39,792 nt of DNA from Cardiobacteriaceae bacterium (GTDB lineage: Bacteria > Pseudomonadota > Gammaproteobacteria > Cardiobacteriales > Cardiobacteriaceae), in contig JAUMZX010000001.1 of the NCBI GenBank assembly GCA_030527905.1, forward strand, positions 1 through 39,792, given 5' to 3'. The number at the start of each line of letters is the position of its first letter. The stretch's first letter is position 1. A program made the position numbers and the translations under genes. This document shows positions 24,405-32,168 of this stretch, in pieces. The notes under the pieces were generated by a model that saw only the letters and a list, made by a program, of their open reading frames with translations, ran no database searches and was not told the DNA's origin.

Positions 24405-24519
24405 TCTTTAACCTCAGCCGTTTAAGTAGCTGATTAATCGCCGCTGACTTGTTGGGTAGACTATTAAAGAAATCTAAGTTCTCATCCCAGATATAAATAA
24501 GCTTTCTATTCTTAGACAT
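24391..24519 (-). CDS. Ribbon-helix-helix-like small DNA-binding protein (42 aa)
   Basis: Manual translation MSKNRKLIYIWDENLDFFNSLPNKSAAINQLLKRLRLKNGRH; overlaps the terS stop and terL start, filling the gap. Confidence 0.7.
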   Translation of the reverse strand: MSKNRKLIYIWDENLDFFNSLPNKSAAINQLLKRLRLKNGRH

Positions 24520-25012
24520 CTAAGTTATCCAAATCCTTTAATGCTTCCTCGATACCTATATGGGCCGTAACCTGTTTATCAACGAACATGTTATGTTCCT
24601 TACCTAATAGCTTAATGGCATTAATCTTATCGGCATCTTTTGATATATCATTTACAACAATCATTTGTAGTTGCTGTTTAAGATGTTCCGGAGTAAGACG
24701 CATCATATTCTTAGCCTCGGCGACCCACTTTTGGCAATCCTTAGTCTCCATCTTTTGTGCAGCCCACCGGCTGTAGCCTGCACGTATTGCTGATGCATAG
24801 GCGTTCGCATAACTCGGCGACTTAGGATCCATATAATAATCGATCCATTTCTCTTGTTGCTCAGTTTGAGTCCATTGACTAGCAACCTTGCCCTTATTAC
24901 GTTTACGGATACTTACACCGTCCTTGTTTTTCATTCGTTTTGTCCTACCCTCGCGCTGGGCAAGCTTTCTTTCTCTCCAATATTCTTTAGGTCTTTTATT
25001 ATCGGCCATCAT
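24512..25012 (-). CDS. terS: Terminase small subunit
   Basis: QEKWIDYY...NAYASAIRAGYS HTH and DKINAIKLLGK..MF motif; RBS AAGGAGG. Confidence 0.88.
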   Translation of the reverse strand: MMADNKRPKEYWRERKLAQREGRTKRMKNKDGVSIRKRNKGKVASQWTQTEQQEKWIDYYMDPKSPSYANAYASAIRAGYSRWAAQKMETKDCQKWVAEAKNMMRLTPEHLKQQLQMIVVNDISKDADKINAIKLLGKEHNMFVDKQVTAHIGIEEALKDLDNLDV

Positions 25013-25351
25013 GCCTCCTTTCCTAAAGAGTATATACTTTTAGTTTTGGTTAGGGATAGTGTGAGCGCAGCGAGCCGCCCCCCCTCATGTGATAGGTATA
25101 TACTCTTGGGAAGATTAGGTTATATGTTTTTTAGATGAGCATGATTCCTAAGGCCACATAGAGTATATAAATATCGAAGGGAGGAGCCCCCCGTACCCCA
25201 CCCTCCCTCATATATATTACCCAACATAATTGACTTACACACAACAACAAAAAATAATTACATATATACATGAATGCATGTGCGGGTGGCCAGGCTTGAA
25301 TACTACGGCGAGTACTAGGTATTGCATAGTACCTTGTCATGCATACCCATT

Positions 25352-25623
25352 ACTTCGCACAATATATCGCAAAGCCCAGATTGTGGCAACATCCCAGGTT
25401 TTGCATAGTTTTCGGTGGCTAGGCTTGTGGTTGGGGTCATATACTTCGCAAAATGGTGATTGTACGAACTTAACGAGATGCTTATTTTGTCGAGTCGGGG
25501 CTTACTTCGCACATCGTTAACTGTTACCAGATTTTACGAAGTTGAGGAATATTAGGCCGAGATGGGTTATACATCACGTCGAGGGTCATATCGTTACTTC
25601 ACACAAGAGTTATTTTACGAAGT
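25352..25623. repeat. Cluster of dif/Xer-like 11-6-11 sites and half-sites
   Basis: ACTTCGCAAAA-TGGTGA-TTGTACGAACT (25443-25470), ACTTAACGAGA-TGCTTA-TTTTGTCGAGT (25468-25495), ACTTCACACAA-GAGTTA-TTTTACGAAGT (25596-25623); half-sites at 25352, 25504, 25532. Confidence 0.65.
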
Positions 25624-25990
25624 ATGGGGGATATTGATCAGGTTATTAATGAGTGGCGAGGTGAGGGCTTCCCCAATACATTATATATAGTAGATGAATA
25701 TAGACCCTTATGTGTGCAGTGTATATAGGTAGATAATCGAGCAGAAGTATCAGATTTTGGGAGATTATCTCAGATATGATATAAATTTTAGGGGGTAGTT
25801 TTCGTTTCCCCGGCATTTTCGTTGCATTTTAGTGGGATAGAGGGCATTTTTATATCATATATGGTATATTTGGGTCAAAAAATGAGGTGTTTTAGGTGTG
25901 AAATATATGTATTACACAATAATTTGGGCGTGTGGGACGATTGATTGTAGGCTCAGCATGTTGGTCATACCCGGCAAATAGCCCAAAACT

Positions 25991-26155
25991 ATGAAAAAAA
26001 CATCAAATATAGTGCTAAAATGGCTATTTTACGTTAGTTTTACTGTATTTTGTGGGATATTAGACGTCGTGCAAGGGTTATGTGCGTTATTCCCTATGTA
26101 TATTCCTTATATTATTCCTATAAAGGGTAAAAAATTCCAAGTAATGAAGCATTAA
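25991..26155 (+). CDS. Possible small hydrophobic protein (54 aa)
   Basis: MKKTSNIVLKWLFYVSFTVFCGILDVV...; no clear RBS, AT-rich context, may be spurious. Confidence 0.25.
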   Translation: MKKTSNIVLKWLFYVSFTVFCGILDVVQGLCALFPMYIPYIIPIKGKKFQVMKH

Positions 26156-26573
26156 AAGAGAGGCCCGCGCGCCTGGTTGGTGGGCAATTTATACGTTTGC
26201 GGGCTATTCTATGGGCAATTATGGGTATTATTTGGTGTTTGTATATAATTATAAGCACTTATATAGCATTAAGAGGAATCGCCGCGGTTTTTATGTATGG
26301 TTATTACTATAGGTTGATGCATTTATAGGTGTTATTACTTGTATTTTGCAAGTGGTATGCACGTAGTAACAAAAAGCCTCAAAAGATATCCCGCGCCGGG
26401 CTTATTGTGACGTATTAAGCATAGGCGATTTAAGCGTCGTGACTGTGCTCATTTATGCGCGCCAAGCACTAGCAAGCATCTTTTTTATTCGGAGCGATTA
26501 TAGAGGCTCTCAATGGCCTTATACGACACTTTAGAGTTGATGATAGTAGTGTAGGTTGAGTGGAGTGTTAGAG

Positions 26574-26605
26574 AAAATAAAAAAGCCGCCGGTTGATTGG
26601 CGGTT
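26574..26605 (-). terminator. Intrinsic terminator closing the large ncRNA transcript
   Basis: Minus strand AACCGCCAAT-CA-ACCGGCGGC followed by TTTTTTATTTT. Confidence 0.85.
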
Positions 26606-26644
26606 ATTGTTTTAGTTGTTTACTTATTGTAAATGATTTACATT

Positions 26645-27340
26645 ATTTTTAGACATAAAGGAGCCCTCTACCCCTGGTTCTACTAGCGGCGAGGTTAGGT
26701 AATAACTCTTAACCACTAAACACCCGCCAACTTCTAGCTTATCAGTCACACAGTTAAACACTAGTTGTACAGCTTAGTTTAATGTTATACCTAAACTCCC
26801 GCGCTTTTCTTATAAGAACTGGGATAGGGTTCATTATTAGTCACTTGTTAGTAACTGTATCGCACTTACCTGCGCTGGCCACCTGTTTAAGAACAATCTC
26901 CTCAACGTATCACCTAAGTAGTCCGCGGCTACCCTTTTGAGGTACTTCCGGACTTTTTGTCGTACACGGCTCCTATCTCAATTTATGTACGTCCCCACTT
27001 AGATGGCGTTGTCTCTTGCACTCCCCACGATTCCCAGCCTATCAGTTGCCCGATATTCCACAAAGCGCGGCAGTTGTTCACACCATAGCACCTGAGTGAC
27101 CAGATACCACCATTTTGCAGGGTCGTGAGAAATTGAGAAAGACACGTTGCCCTTTGGCATAAACAACAACATTATAGAGTGGCTAACTTTAATCTATTAC
27201 CAAGAGTTTTCCTACTAACCTAACAAGGTGTTTGGCTCTTATGTGGTCAATTGAGGCTGGTTGATTGCATCCAGCCTGAGATTATCCGCCAGTCCGAGGC
27301 CTTGCTACTGTAGCTACTTGTAATCCTCGGCTCTAAAAAA
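26645..27340 (-). ncRNA. Large ornate structured ncRNA (~700 nt core, transcript ~810 nt), family unassigned
   Basis: No ORF of 60 aa or more in any frame; promoter upstream, terminator downstream; more than 15 helices including long-range nested pairs and pseudoknots; G-U wobbles work only on the minus strand. Confidence 0.85.
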
Positions 27341-27389
27341 ATAAAGGTACTATATAGTTTTAAAGAGACTATATATAACTCTTACTATC

Positions 27390-27418
27390 AGTATACCACA
27401 CCTGAAATATAGATGCAA
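27390..27418 (-). promoter_or_regulatory. Sigma70-type promoter for the large ncRNA
   Basis: Minus strand TTGCAT-17 nt-TATACT with extended -10 TG; start site near 27383. Confidence 0.8.
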
Positions 27419-27476: not shown

Positions 27477-27504
27477 TTGACATTCAAAATATTTGCGCTA
27501 CACT
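27477..27504 (+). promoter_or_regulatory. Sigma70-type early promoter, divergent from the ncRNA promoter
   Basis: TTGACA-16 nt-TACACT with an A-tract upstream. Confidence 0.75.
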
Positions 27505-28299: not shown

Positions 28300-28500
28300 A
28301 TGTTACCTTACAGTGGATCACCTAAATTTATTGAAGACTTCGCCGATTTTGTCAACTGGACACTTGAGATGCTATACAAAGTGCCGGTAATTGGTGGAGC
28401 ATTAGCATTAGCCGGGGTTATCTTTTGGCACTTTCTCGCCTACGCAATGGTTACCTGGGCAACAGTAATGGTTATTTTACTAGTAATGGAGGTATTGTGA
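28300..28500 (+). CDS. Small membrane protein
   Basis: RBS GAGGA before ATG 28300; two hydrophobic segments. Confidence 0.7.
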   Translation: MLPYSGSPKFIEDFADFVNWTLEMLYKVPVIGGALALAGVIFWHFLAYAMVTWATVMVILLVMEVL

Positions 28501-29015
28501 ACAAAAAACAGGTAAATGCTTTCCTGAGGGTTGTGTATAAAGGCAACGACAGGCCGGCAATTACTAGCGTGTTGATTGATAAGGTGCAGGGCAGGACGTG
28601 CATTGTCGGCACTAACGGGGCAATGTTGGCACTAGTCTTTATTGACGGGCTAGATGATTATGTTGGGAAGCAAATCTCGCGGATCGACTTAGAGGCTAAA
28701 GCTAAATCAATGACAACTAGAGTGTCAGATGCGCTTGATGCGATGGCGGTTATAGACTTAGTTCGAGTAGGGCGTAAGGTGGAAACTAATTTTCCCCCTT
28801 ATATGGATATACTTACCCCATACCTAGTGAACAAGCCAGTGGGGCAAGCTCAAATGAAGTTTAACGCTGAATTTTTCAAGACAATCCAAGATATTGATGG
28901 CGGGGCTTCATTAATTGTTGACCTTTATGGGGAAATTAAACCAATGATATTTAAGAGCGAGCGCGGCATTTACGTAGTCATGCCGATGACTCTCAAAGAG
29001 CCTGACTCGCTTTAA
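28497..29015 (+). CDS. Truncated DNA polymerase III beta-clamp-like protein
   Basis: GTG after GGAGGT; DRPAITSV, VGTNGAMLA, FPPYMDIL, FNAEFF, VVMPM correspond to DnaN domain II/III motifs. Confidence 0.72.
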   Translation: MNKKQVNAFLRVVYKGNDRPAITSVLIDKVQGRTCIVGTNGAMLALVFIDGLDDYVGKQISRIDLEAKAKSMTTRVSDALDAMAVIDLVRVGRKVETNFPPYMDILTPYLVNKPVGQAQMKFNAEFFKTIQDIDGGASLIVDLYGEIKPMIFKSERGIYVVMPMTLKEPDSL

Positions 29016-31708: not shown

Positions 31709-31912
31709 ATGAAGCAACAGATTCTAGAGATTTTAGATGAGTCAACAAGTAACGGCATGAAGGCTGATGATATTGTGCAGCTTTTAGAACAACGACGCCA
31801 AGATGCGATTGAGAAATGGGAAGATATTCTACAAGAGGACGAGCGAAGCGGCTACGACGTATTGTATGGTGTAGTAGATGATATGATAACAGAGGAGTTG
31901 AGCGATGAATGA
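31709..31912 (+). CDS. Acidic hypothetical protein
   Basis: RBS GGAG; coupled to neighbours. Confidence 0.72.
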   Translation: MKQQILEILDESTSNGMKADDIVQLLEQRRQDAIEKWEDILQEDERSGYDVLYGVVDDMITEELSDE

Positions 31913-32168
31913 GACATGGCGAGGATCTGCATTATGTACGCAGACAGATCCGGAAGTTTTCTTTCCACAGAACAAAGCATATATGGATGATTATAGCGGG
32001 TATGGCAGTTACAATGCGGCACGAAAGATTTGTGCAGAGTGTCCAGTTAATGGTGAATGTCTAGCTGATGCGTTGATGACTGGTGATGTAGAGTACGGCA
32101 TGCGCGGCGGGCTAACACCACGCGAGCGTATGGGTATTCTAGCTACGAAGGTGGTAATGTATGAGTGA
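31905..32168 (+). CDS. whiB: WhiB family Fe-S transcription factor
   Basis: W...ALC...DPEVFFP, ARKICAECPV..EC (4 Cys), G(MR)GGLT.RER. Confidence 0.93.
   Translation: MNETWRGSALCTQTDPEVFFPQNKAYMDDYSGYGSYNAARKICAECPVNGECLADALMTGDVEYGMRGGLTPRERMGILATKVVMYE

Follow-up and report, generated by a model that had tools for sequence, protein, structure and literature searches.

GOLLD and ROOL are the two best-studied phage RNAs of their kind and were recently shown to be RNA-only cages of unknown function (PMC12286853). In published accounts, GOLLD (RF02032; PMC12286853, PMC12990946) is a phage-borne, multi-junction RNA of 700-830 nt with kissing loops and variable domains, its 3' domain being conserved and its 5' domain variable (PMC12286853), and is dispensable for phage production (PMC7567579), and ROOL (RF03087; PMC5737381, PMC12286853) is a large ornate RNA of phages and also of plasmids, with pseudoknots, which accumulates to high levels in one strain without being essential there (PMC12286853). 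It is also reported that the most abundant transcript of ICP1, a phage without tRNA genes, is an ncRNA of ~800 nt from an ORF-free gap (PMC7567579), and that the phi29 prohead RNA lies near packaging functions and oligomerises via loop-loop pairing (PMC12990946). Here, we describe a phage element that resembles GOLLD and ROOL in size, setting and loop-loop contacts, yet is recognised by neither of their models, and which we regard as a new family within this broad kind of large ornate phage RNA. The reading that we prefer, with a probability of roughly 45%, is that of a folded RNA that the phage can do without and that acts in trans on the host cell, as a decoy or a scaffold, possibly with self-assembly.

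The window, that is, the whole 39,792-nucleotide stretch analysed here, is a 39.8-kb contig corresponding to a complete circular phage, with ends that overlap by 55 nt. Its late block (terS, terL, portal, capsid and tail) lies on the minus strand and its early genes, including those for a WhiB-like regulator, a helicase, an exonuclease and resolvases, on the plus strand. On the minus strand, an ncRNA of ~730 nt is predicted at 26654-27383, with a start deduced from the promoter and an end set by conservation. The sigma-70-type promoter reported in the initial annotation (TTGCAT-17-TATACT, minus strand) is indeed present at 27418-27390 and carries a TG directly before the -10 element; it had escaped a consensus promoter scanner because its -35 hexamer matches at only 3 of 6 positions. 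This 29-nt pattern has an exact match in 22 viral contigs, and the promoter is common to all three allele classes described below. Back to back with it, a divergent early promoter (TTGACA-16-TACACT, 27477-27504, plus strand) faces the early genes, in agreement with the proposed location of the element at the point of early/late divergence. Downstream and on the same strand, the first gene of the late block, terS (terminase small subunit, 24512-25012), lies 1.6 kb away. The intervening 1.5 kb ahead of terS (25013-26570) is poorly conserved and holds short ORFs only. Direct repeats of the TACTTCGCACA type occupy 25350-25623 and palindromes 25026-25107, and the stretch is a candidate packaging or origin region.

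The coding content of the element is negligible. No ORF of at least 60 aa is found between 25520 and 27638, as had been claimed for the locus, and the longest one within the element has 57 aa. Furthermore, no ORF of at least 15 aa is common to all 10 class-A copies or to all 9 class-B copies, and the 7 ORFs common to the class-C copies are accounted for by the 97-98% identity of these 5 copies. The predicted intrinsic terminator was likewise recovered on the minus strand at 26577-26603 (hairpin 26603-26586 followed by a U tract). However, the transcript end placed at 26575 has to be moved, as conservation spans 27383 to ~26654, about 50 nt ahead of the terminator, and is followed by a U run in classes B and C. 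In most relatives, the RNA is separated from the terminator by a small gene of ~60 aa with its own TTGACA promoter (62 aa in L021, L021:5480-5668), a gene that the window, L032 and L033 lack. A tmRNA was considered and rejected: ARAGORN detected 0 tRNA or tmRNA genes in the window, and no ORF is shared within class A or B.

With a length of 730-775 nt across classes, several junctions and a loop-loop contact, the element falls within the range of 550-830 nt that characterizes GOLLD and ROOL as multi-junction phage RNAs. The Rfam scan that had been suggested for this locus gave no match to GOLLD, ROOL, introns or other families: nothing reached gathering scores in the window, where one chance match at E 6.5 was returned. 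Classes B and C had no credible match at E<=1, a partial HOTAIR_2 match (E 0.018, 26.8 bits versus a cut-off of 60) lying outside the element. The model of the conserved 3' domain of GOLLD (cut-off 150 bits), run without a true GOLLD as positive control, and the ROOL model (cut-off 99.1 bits), for which the pMP118 ROOL scored 130.4 bits in the same search, were both without match at E<=10 in the window. When the ROOL consensus blocks and the GOLLD env-38 sequence were compared by eye, no invariant block of the element was found in common. In the element, the invariant blocks are 5' and central and the 3' part varies, to the point that class C has an unrelated 3' hairpin, which is the reverse of GOLLD; it also differs from GOLLD by the absence of neighbouring tRNAs, by one long loop-loop contact of 9-12 bp and by a division into three allele classes within a phage population. 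The proximity of tRNA genes is typical of GOLLD and ROOL, if not obligatory, and is not seen here. Compared with ROOL, the element is ~150 nt longer than the average, topology being compared by eye only. The ICP1 ncRNA is similar in length, its gap is likewise free of ORFs and the phage likewise has no tRNA genes, but no sequence similarity to the element was found in the phage collection.

HOLDH (~400 nt) is a large metagenomic motif found at a distance from HINT genes; it is about half as long as the element, and its model (RF02997) has no match in the window or in the class-B genome G068, class C being covered by the Rfam-wide scan only. The link to HINT recalls the inteins, with LAGLIDADG or Hint domains, that occur in the TerL of some close relatives (P0098, P0102, P0108 and P0109), the TerL of the window being devoid of them. 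The literature searched contains no description of this RNA, and motif searches in supplements, consisting of gapped alignments and partial, were empty; a fragment may be listed in survey supplements. Between the two possibilities put forward in the initial annotation, a divergent GOLLD or ROOL and a new class, the new class is thus favoured, as neither model matches and the window has no tRNA gene. A highly diverged member of either family, beyond the reach of current models, would account for the similar size, the phage location, the kissing loops and the variable domains, and the reach of the ROOL model is limited since a true ROOL scores no more than 130 bits where the cut-off is 99. Set against the empty searches in all three classes, the reversed polarity of conservation and the missing tRNA genes, this explanation seems distinctly unlikely, and the element very probably stands outside GOLLD and ROOL.

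A search with the terminase yielded 37 loci, 34 of which have 90-97% TerL identity. In these relatives with 90-97% identical TerL, three classes of the element, which we name A, B and C, occupy one site behind one promoter, with an identity of 55-63% between classes and of 88-98% within a class. These classes had gone unnoticed in the initial annotation, as had the loop-loop contact presented below. All scans together gave 72 full-length matches corresponding to 24 unique copies, namely 10 of class A (window included), 9 of class B and 5 of class C, the latter being 97-98% alike. Among the 22 loci that span the site, 8 carry class A, 8 class B, 4 class C, 1 a truncated class C (L031) and 1 is empty (L028), the latter lacking the promoter as well as the RNA; the 20 full copies at these loci include two pairs of identical RNAs. 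As it is lost in some genomes, the element is accessory. A second core pattern retrieved 40 loci, comprising 22 family members and 18 without profile match. Outside this group, 60 loci from more distant phages, among which those with 60-72% TerL identity and several too short upstream, gave no match to the profile of the 24 copies in a search whose positive control worked; blastn of the three classes against 50,697 phage records returned nothing or matches of 33-72 nt at E 0.2-0.8, and a GTDB pattern scan and a capsid scan were both empty. The closest named phage has a TerL identity of 42%.

The window RNA is 93-95% identical to those of 7 class-A relatives, to be compared with 88-89% for portal DNA and 84-91% for terS in the same genomes, and with 72-79% over about half of its length only for the gap adjoining the element. 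Being more conserved than essential genes, the element is therefore under selection. Furthermore, the distribution of the classes follows none of the neighbouring genes: on trees that are poorly resolved, with 2 starred branches each, the number of label changes was 10 for the portal (10.4 when shuffled), 13 for terS (11.0 when shuffled) and 10 for the upstream early gene (10.2 when shuffled). Since the classes do not cluster on any of these trees, the alleles of the RNA locus appear to be freely exchanged among phages, and they are swapped as a cassette with sharp ends. The early gene at 28425-29015 is 65-69% identical to its counterparts in relatives with a 95% identical portal and is, judged by sequence comparison, a mosaic exchange adjoining the RNA locus.

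This distribution bears directly on a packaging or virion RNA that would oligomerise via its loops in the manner of the phi29 pRNA. The position upstream of terS, terL and portal on the same strand, and a loop-loop pairing specific to each class, would suit such a role. The phi29 pRNA measures ~170 nt, and the element is much longer; an RNA of this type is essential and co-inherited with the motor, whereas the element is absent from one genome (L028) and was not found in the loci of more distant phages mentioned above, several of which are too short upstream, and its class is unlinked to portal and terS alleles. A packaging RNA is hence very improbable, in comparison with the RNA acting in trans that we propose.

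The core fold, on which per-class consensus folds and helix lists agree, consists of the following elements, all on the minus strand. A 5' leader hairpin (27351-27375) is near-identical in all classes, with one compensatory A-U/G-C pair, and could instead serve as a DNA inverted repeat. The long-range helix P2, formed by 27278-27292 and by 26875-26900, the latter with a near-invariant bulge UUAAACAGG (26890-26882), is paired in 150/150 cells in class A with 3 compensatory pairs and has a homologous helix in classes B and C; in our model, it would close the main multiloop bearing P3, P4, P5 and P7, with a separate 3' domain. P3 (27254-27277) is a hairpin with 4 pairs showing two-sided change across classes and a loop that we take to be GNRA-like, and the P4 arm (27191-27252) ends with a near-invariant ACCU-UGUU-AGGU hairpin (27229-27218). 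The P5 domain (27019-27181) comprises a 13-bp helix, P5a, P5b and a class-specific GNRA hairpin; the P5a module (27119-27153) has the form GGG-CAA-CGUG[loop]CACG-A-CCC, and its loop provides one half of the loop-loop contact. The P7 domain (26903-27011) forms a three-way junction with the hairpins P8 (26961-26991) and P9 (26920-26954). P9 is 100% paired, with 3 two-sided changes across classes, and contains in most copies an internal loop of the CCUAAAG/GCCAUGG type, variant in the window, which is presumably tetraloop-receptor-like. Packing of the GNRA/receptor type is a plausible deduction. The 3' domain (26668-26827), made of the closing helix P10 and of the long irregular hairpin P11, is homologous in A and B and replaced by an unrelated AU-rich hairpin in C.

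Covariation among homologs, which had been awaited as support for the RNA, is present within two classes: compensatory pairs in correctly registered helices amount to 10 in A, 12 in B and none in C, the count excluding the second P4a row and three of the five P11 segments in A, P2a, the first rows of P4a, P4b and P10 and two inner P5 rows in B, and P2a, the first P4a row, one P5 row, P5a and P5b in C. The three classes were further compared on an alignment made from sequence alone for 12 of the 24 copies, with 85 model pairs and 500 shuffles, bearing in mind that the classes amount to three independent draws only, that the shuffle control ignores relatedness and that the model was chosen with homologs in view. 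In this test, 88% of the cells are paired, as opposed to 33-47% in slid controls, 57 cells are changed on both sides compared with a shuffled mean of 25, and covariation reaches 0.186 versus 0.108, a value attained by 0/500 shuffles. On the other hand, shuffles were not beaten for the number of pairs with two-sided change (15 versus 12.5, 55/500 shuffles) or for extra pair types (32 versus 37). The 74 pairs of the initial annotation, on the same alignment, are 69% paired with a covariation of 0.146 versus 0.127 (8/500 as high), a comparison that partly favours our model by construction because the homologs were known and some of the earlier helices are class-specific.

The inner helices proposed from the single sequence fare well across the 10 class-A copies, where the 13-bp helix is paired in 130/130 cells, the helix CAUCUAAGUGG in 109/110 and the GNRA hairpin in 60/60. 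By contrast, the long-range architecture was largely wrong, three of its helices breaking in class A: the GAGC/GCUC end helix has a C-C mismatch in 4/10 copies, and ACUGGCGG/CCGCUAGU and GGCUGGGA/UCCCAGUU pair in only 67/80 and 70/80 cells. An intermediate case is that of UUGACCAC (80/80 cells), AAACACC (68/70) and CCGCGCUUU (89/90), which are kept in class A but show no compensatory change and compete with covarying helices. As analogous alternative long-range pairings are found in class B, these helices possibly represent a second conformation.

Two mutually exclusive sets of long-range helices in A and B are reminiscent of a switch, and together with the location at the divergence point they would fit a cis-acting function, either as a regulatory leader, by which a phage protein is titrated or the early/late switch controlled, or as a single-stranded DNA structure near an origin or the genome ends. 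In one unrelated phage, a helicase gene follows the P5a module, as do, by eye, Rep-like or P-loop ORFs in others, which goes in the same direction. However, the element is followed by a U-rich end, a terminator separates it from terS, its G-U pairs and GNRA-type loops speak for an RNA read from one strand, and 730 nt with tertiary contacts far exceed the needs of a leader. We consequently hold a cis-acting role to be rather unlikely and retain the trans-acting RNA as our preferred reading.

A further feature of the fold is a predicted contact, either within or between molecules, that joins the pyrimidine-rich loop of P5a (27138-27130) and the loop of P8 (26984-26976), which are complementary in 24/24 unique copies with a different sequence code in each class. 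The uninterrupted Watson-Crick run is 9-12 in A, 12 in B and 7 in C (10 with G-U) when loops of the same class are confronted, and 3-5 across classes, where one combination, of the B loop with the A loop, reaches -10.0 kcal/mol via G-U pairs; in three class-A copies, both loops are lengthened together. When the partner loop was shuffled, the observed run was reached in 13, 2 and 93 of 5000 trials for A, B and C, respectively. When all of a 350-nt downstream window was offered for pairing, shuffled loops did equally well in 39, 49 and 20 of 200 trials; energy alone is therefore unexceptional at this scale, and the contact rests on positional homology and on its class-specific sequence. A repeat finder independently lists the same pair of loops as inverted repeat I12.

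As regards thermodynamics, the folding of 27385-26574 is better than that of dinucleotide shuffles (z -2.6), as expected for a genuine RNA, and that of 27383-26654 gave z -2.75 and -3.3 in two runs, with -1.4 for the antisense strand. The other classes fold only weakly as single sequences (z -0.75 for B and -1.5 for C), and these modest scores would be compatible with chance folding in an intergenic gap devoid of any functional RNA. Conservation beyond that of essential genes, compensatory changes and a loop-loop contact kept in three different sequences have already largely refuted this explanation, which is scarcely credible. Conservation, covariation and the lack of a common ORF uphold the prediction of a large, ornate and independently promoted ncRNA, and the element is almost certainly a real structured RNA.

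An ORF-less catalytic or selfish RNA, be it a new ribozyme or of a group I-like or group II/HYER-like type, would also fit some observations: as in large ribozymes, numerous unpaired nucleotides are invariant, the loop-loop contact is long and one loop resembles a receptor, and the alleles are exchanged as a sharp-ended cassette. Intron cores are recognisable by domain V in group II and by the ordered P-Q-R-S elements in group I. Neither a domain-V hairpin nor a P/Q/R/S order was seen by eye, Rfam gave no intron or ribozyme match, and the element stands alone behind its own promoter and not within a gene, which speaks against group I and group II introns. Furthermore, the empty allele of L028 is also without promoter and is therefore not a precise pre-insertion site, which argues against a selfish RNA. 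A catalytic or selfish nature is thus unlikely, and the host-facing RNA acting in trans remains the reading that we favour.

The P5a module is not restricted to this family. Pattern scans returned 95 distinct matches outside the family, among which a stem at least 3 pairs longer is found in 10 of the 15 matches located outside long reading frames versus 9 of the 80 located inside, one of those pairs being imposed by the pattern for first-pattern matches. An alignment of 21 examples, biased as it combines 3 family members with 18 hand-picked sequences, displays two-sided changes in the outer stem, and these examples lie in gene-free stretches of unrelated phages. Indeed, many unrelated phages and one metagenome contig carry P5a in stretches rich in hairpins and devoid of genes (L253, L321, L246, L245, L276, L282, L259, L306 (~1200), L060, L239, L240, L113 (~1500) and L205 (~1017)), probably representing several uncatalogued RNAs; Rfam on module-bearing and neighbouring loci gave chance matches only, or none. 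The P5a model finds nothing in ICP1, pMP118 and MW202692, and one 13.8-bit match inside a coding region of LBR48.

Two environmental phages share a gene-free structured element of ~550 nt (L076:1180-1740 and L237:1180-1740, the latter equal to L149) that combines a P5a module with an internal loop of the P9 type and resembles the window RNA at its 3' end, with 5 compensatory pairs between the two copies and no match in Rfam or cultured phages. The loop-loop pairing of distant P5a elements is significant only for L113 (0/200 shuffles), borderline for L076 and L237 (9 and 12 of 200 shuffles) and not significant in the other 9 of the 12 elements. The recurrence of P5a suggests a wider modular group, possibly not homologous over the full length. 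Two other observations were made in related phages: a conserved gene-free element, 69-79% identical and without Rfam match, lies upstream of the terminase in phages with ~70% TerL identity (L400:3930-4206, L405:1248-1525 and L414:2106-2286), and a 690-nt ORF-free stretch on the minus strand of a phage with 62% TerL identity (L406:2444-3131; z -4.7 with 10 shuffles, no Rfam match) is possibly another large RNA.

The phage contig (C78) was assigned to a 2-Mb bin whose RecA we judge to be gammaproteobacterial. A spacer-like match to the phage is absent from this bin, which gave two 19-nt matches at E 0.26, and on account of both points the contig may be mis-binned. Matches to the element were found in 0/40 relatives of the bin. 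The phage encodes a WhiB-like regulator at 31905-32168, despite the gammaproteobacterial look of the bin RecA, which suggests mis-binning and an actinobacterial or CPR host; 16 homologs of this protein include no informative names. Concerning expression, none of the datasets that contain the element is on record as RNA, and run X1, which covers 30/30 bins of a 19.9-kb control stretch, behaves as DNA. Runs labelled RNA-Seq (X16, X17 and X20), found via the element itself and two of them flagged as probably DNA, contain five contigs (151-161 nt) that fall entirely within the element and give neither strand nor level; the control stretch is represented by 0 pieces in X16, 8 in X20, all partial, and 42 in X17 (37 partial, 34 less than 90% alike). 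These contigs are a weak hint and were kept out of the evidence.

By analogy, three deep and freely exchanged alleles are what genes engaged in a conflict with hosts or with competitors would show, and it is on this ground that a host-facing trans-acting RNA is proposed. As its promoter is of the sigma-70 type, the element would be transcribed by the host RNA polymerase, presumably without any phage factor, soon after infection. The ~730-nt RNA would then fold into a multi-junction structure locked by the 9-12-bp loop-loop contact and would serve in trans as a decoy or scaffold that the phage does not require, with possible self-assembly as in GOLLD and ROOL, oligomerisation being a guess, as is a host defence or RNA-binding protein as the target. 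The long-lived and interchangeable alleles would reflect diversifying selection by hosts or co-infecting phages. In a bolder version, which we regard as doubtful, the loop-loop contact would be established between molecules, so that each class would build its own RNA particle and exclude the others by means of a self/non-self assembly code, polymorphic in one phage population, and the element would be the largest member of a modular superfamily of P5a-hairpin RNAs acting on the host or on co-infecting phages.

Few bacterial and phage RNAs reach such size and complexity. The three natural alleles constitute a built-in experiment, with one core fold and three orthogonal loop-loop codes, and the recurring P5a hairpin is a handle for finding further uncatalogued phage RNAs. 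Alleles of a large ncRNA that are balanced and pass freely between phages speak for a conflict with hosts or with other phages, and provide a clue to the purpose of such RNAs.
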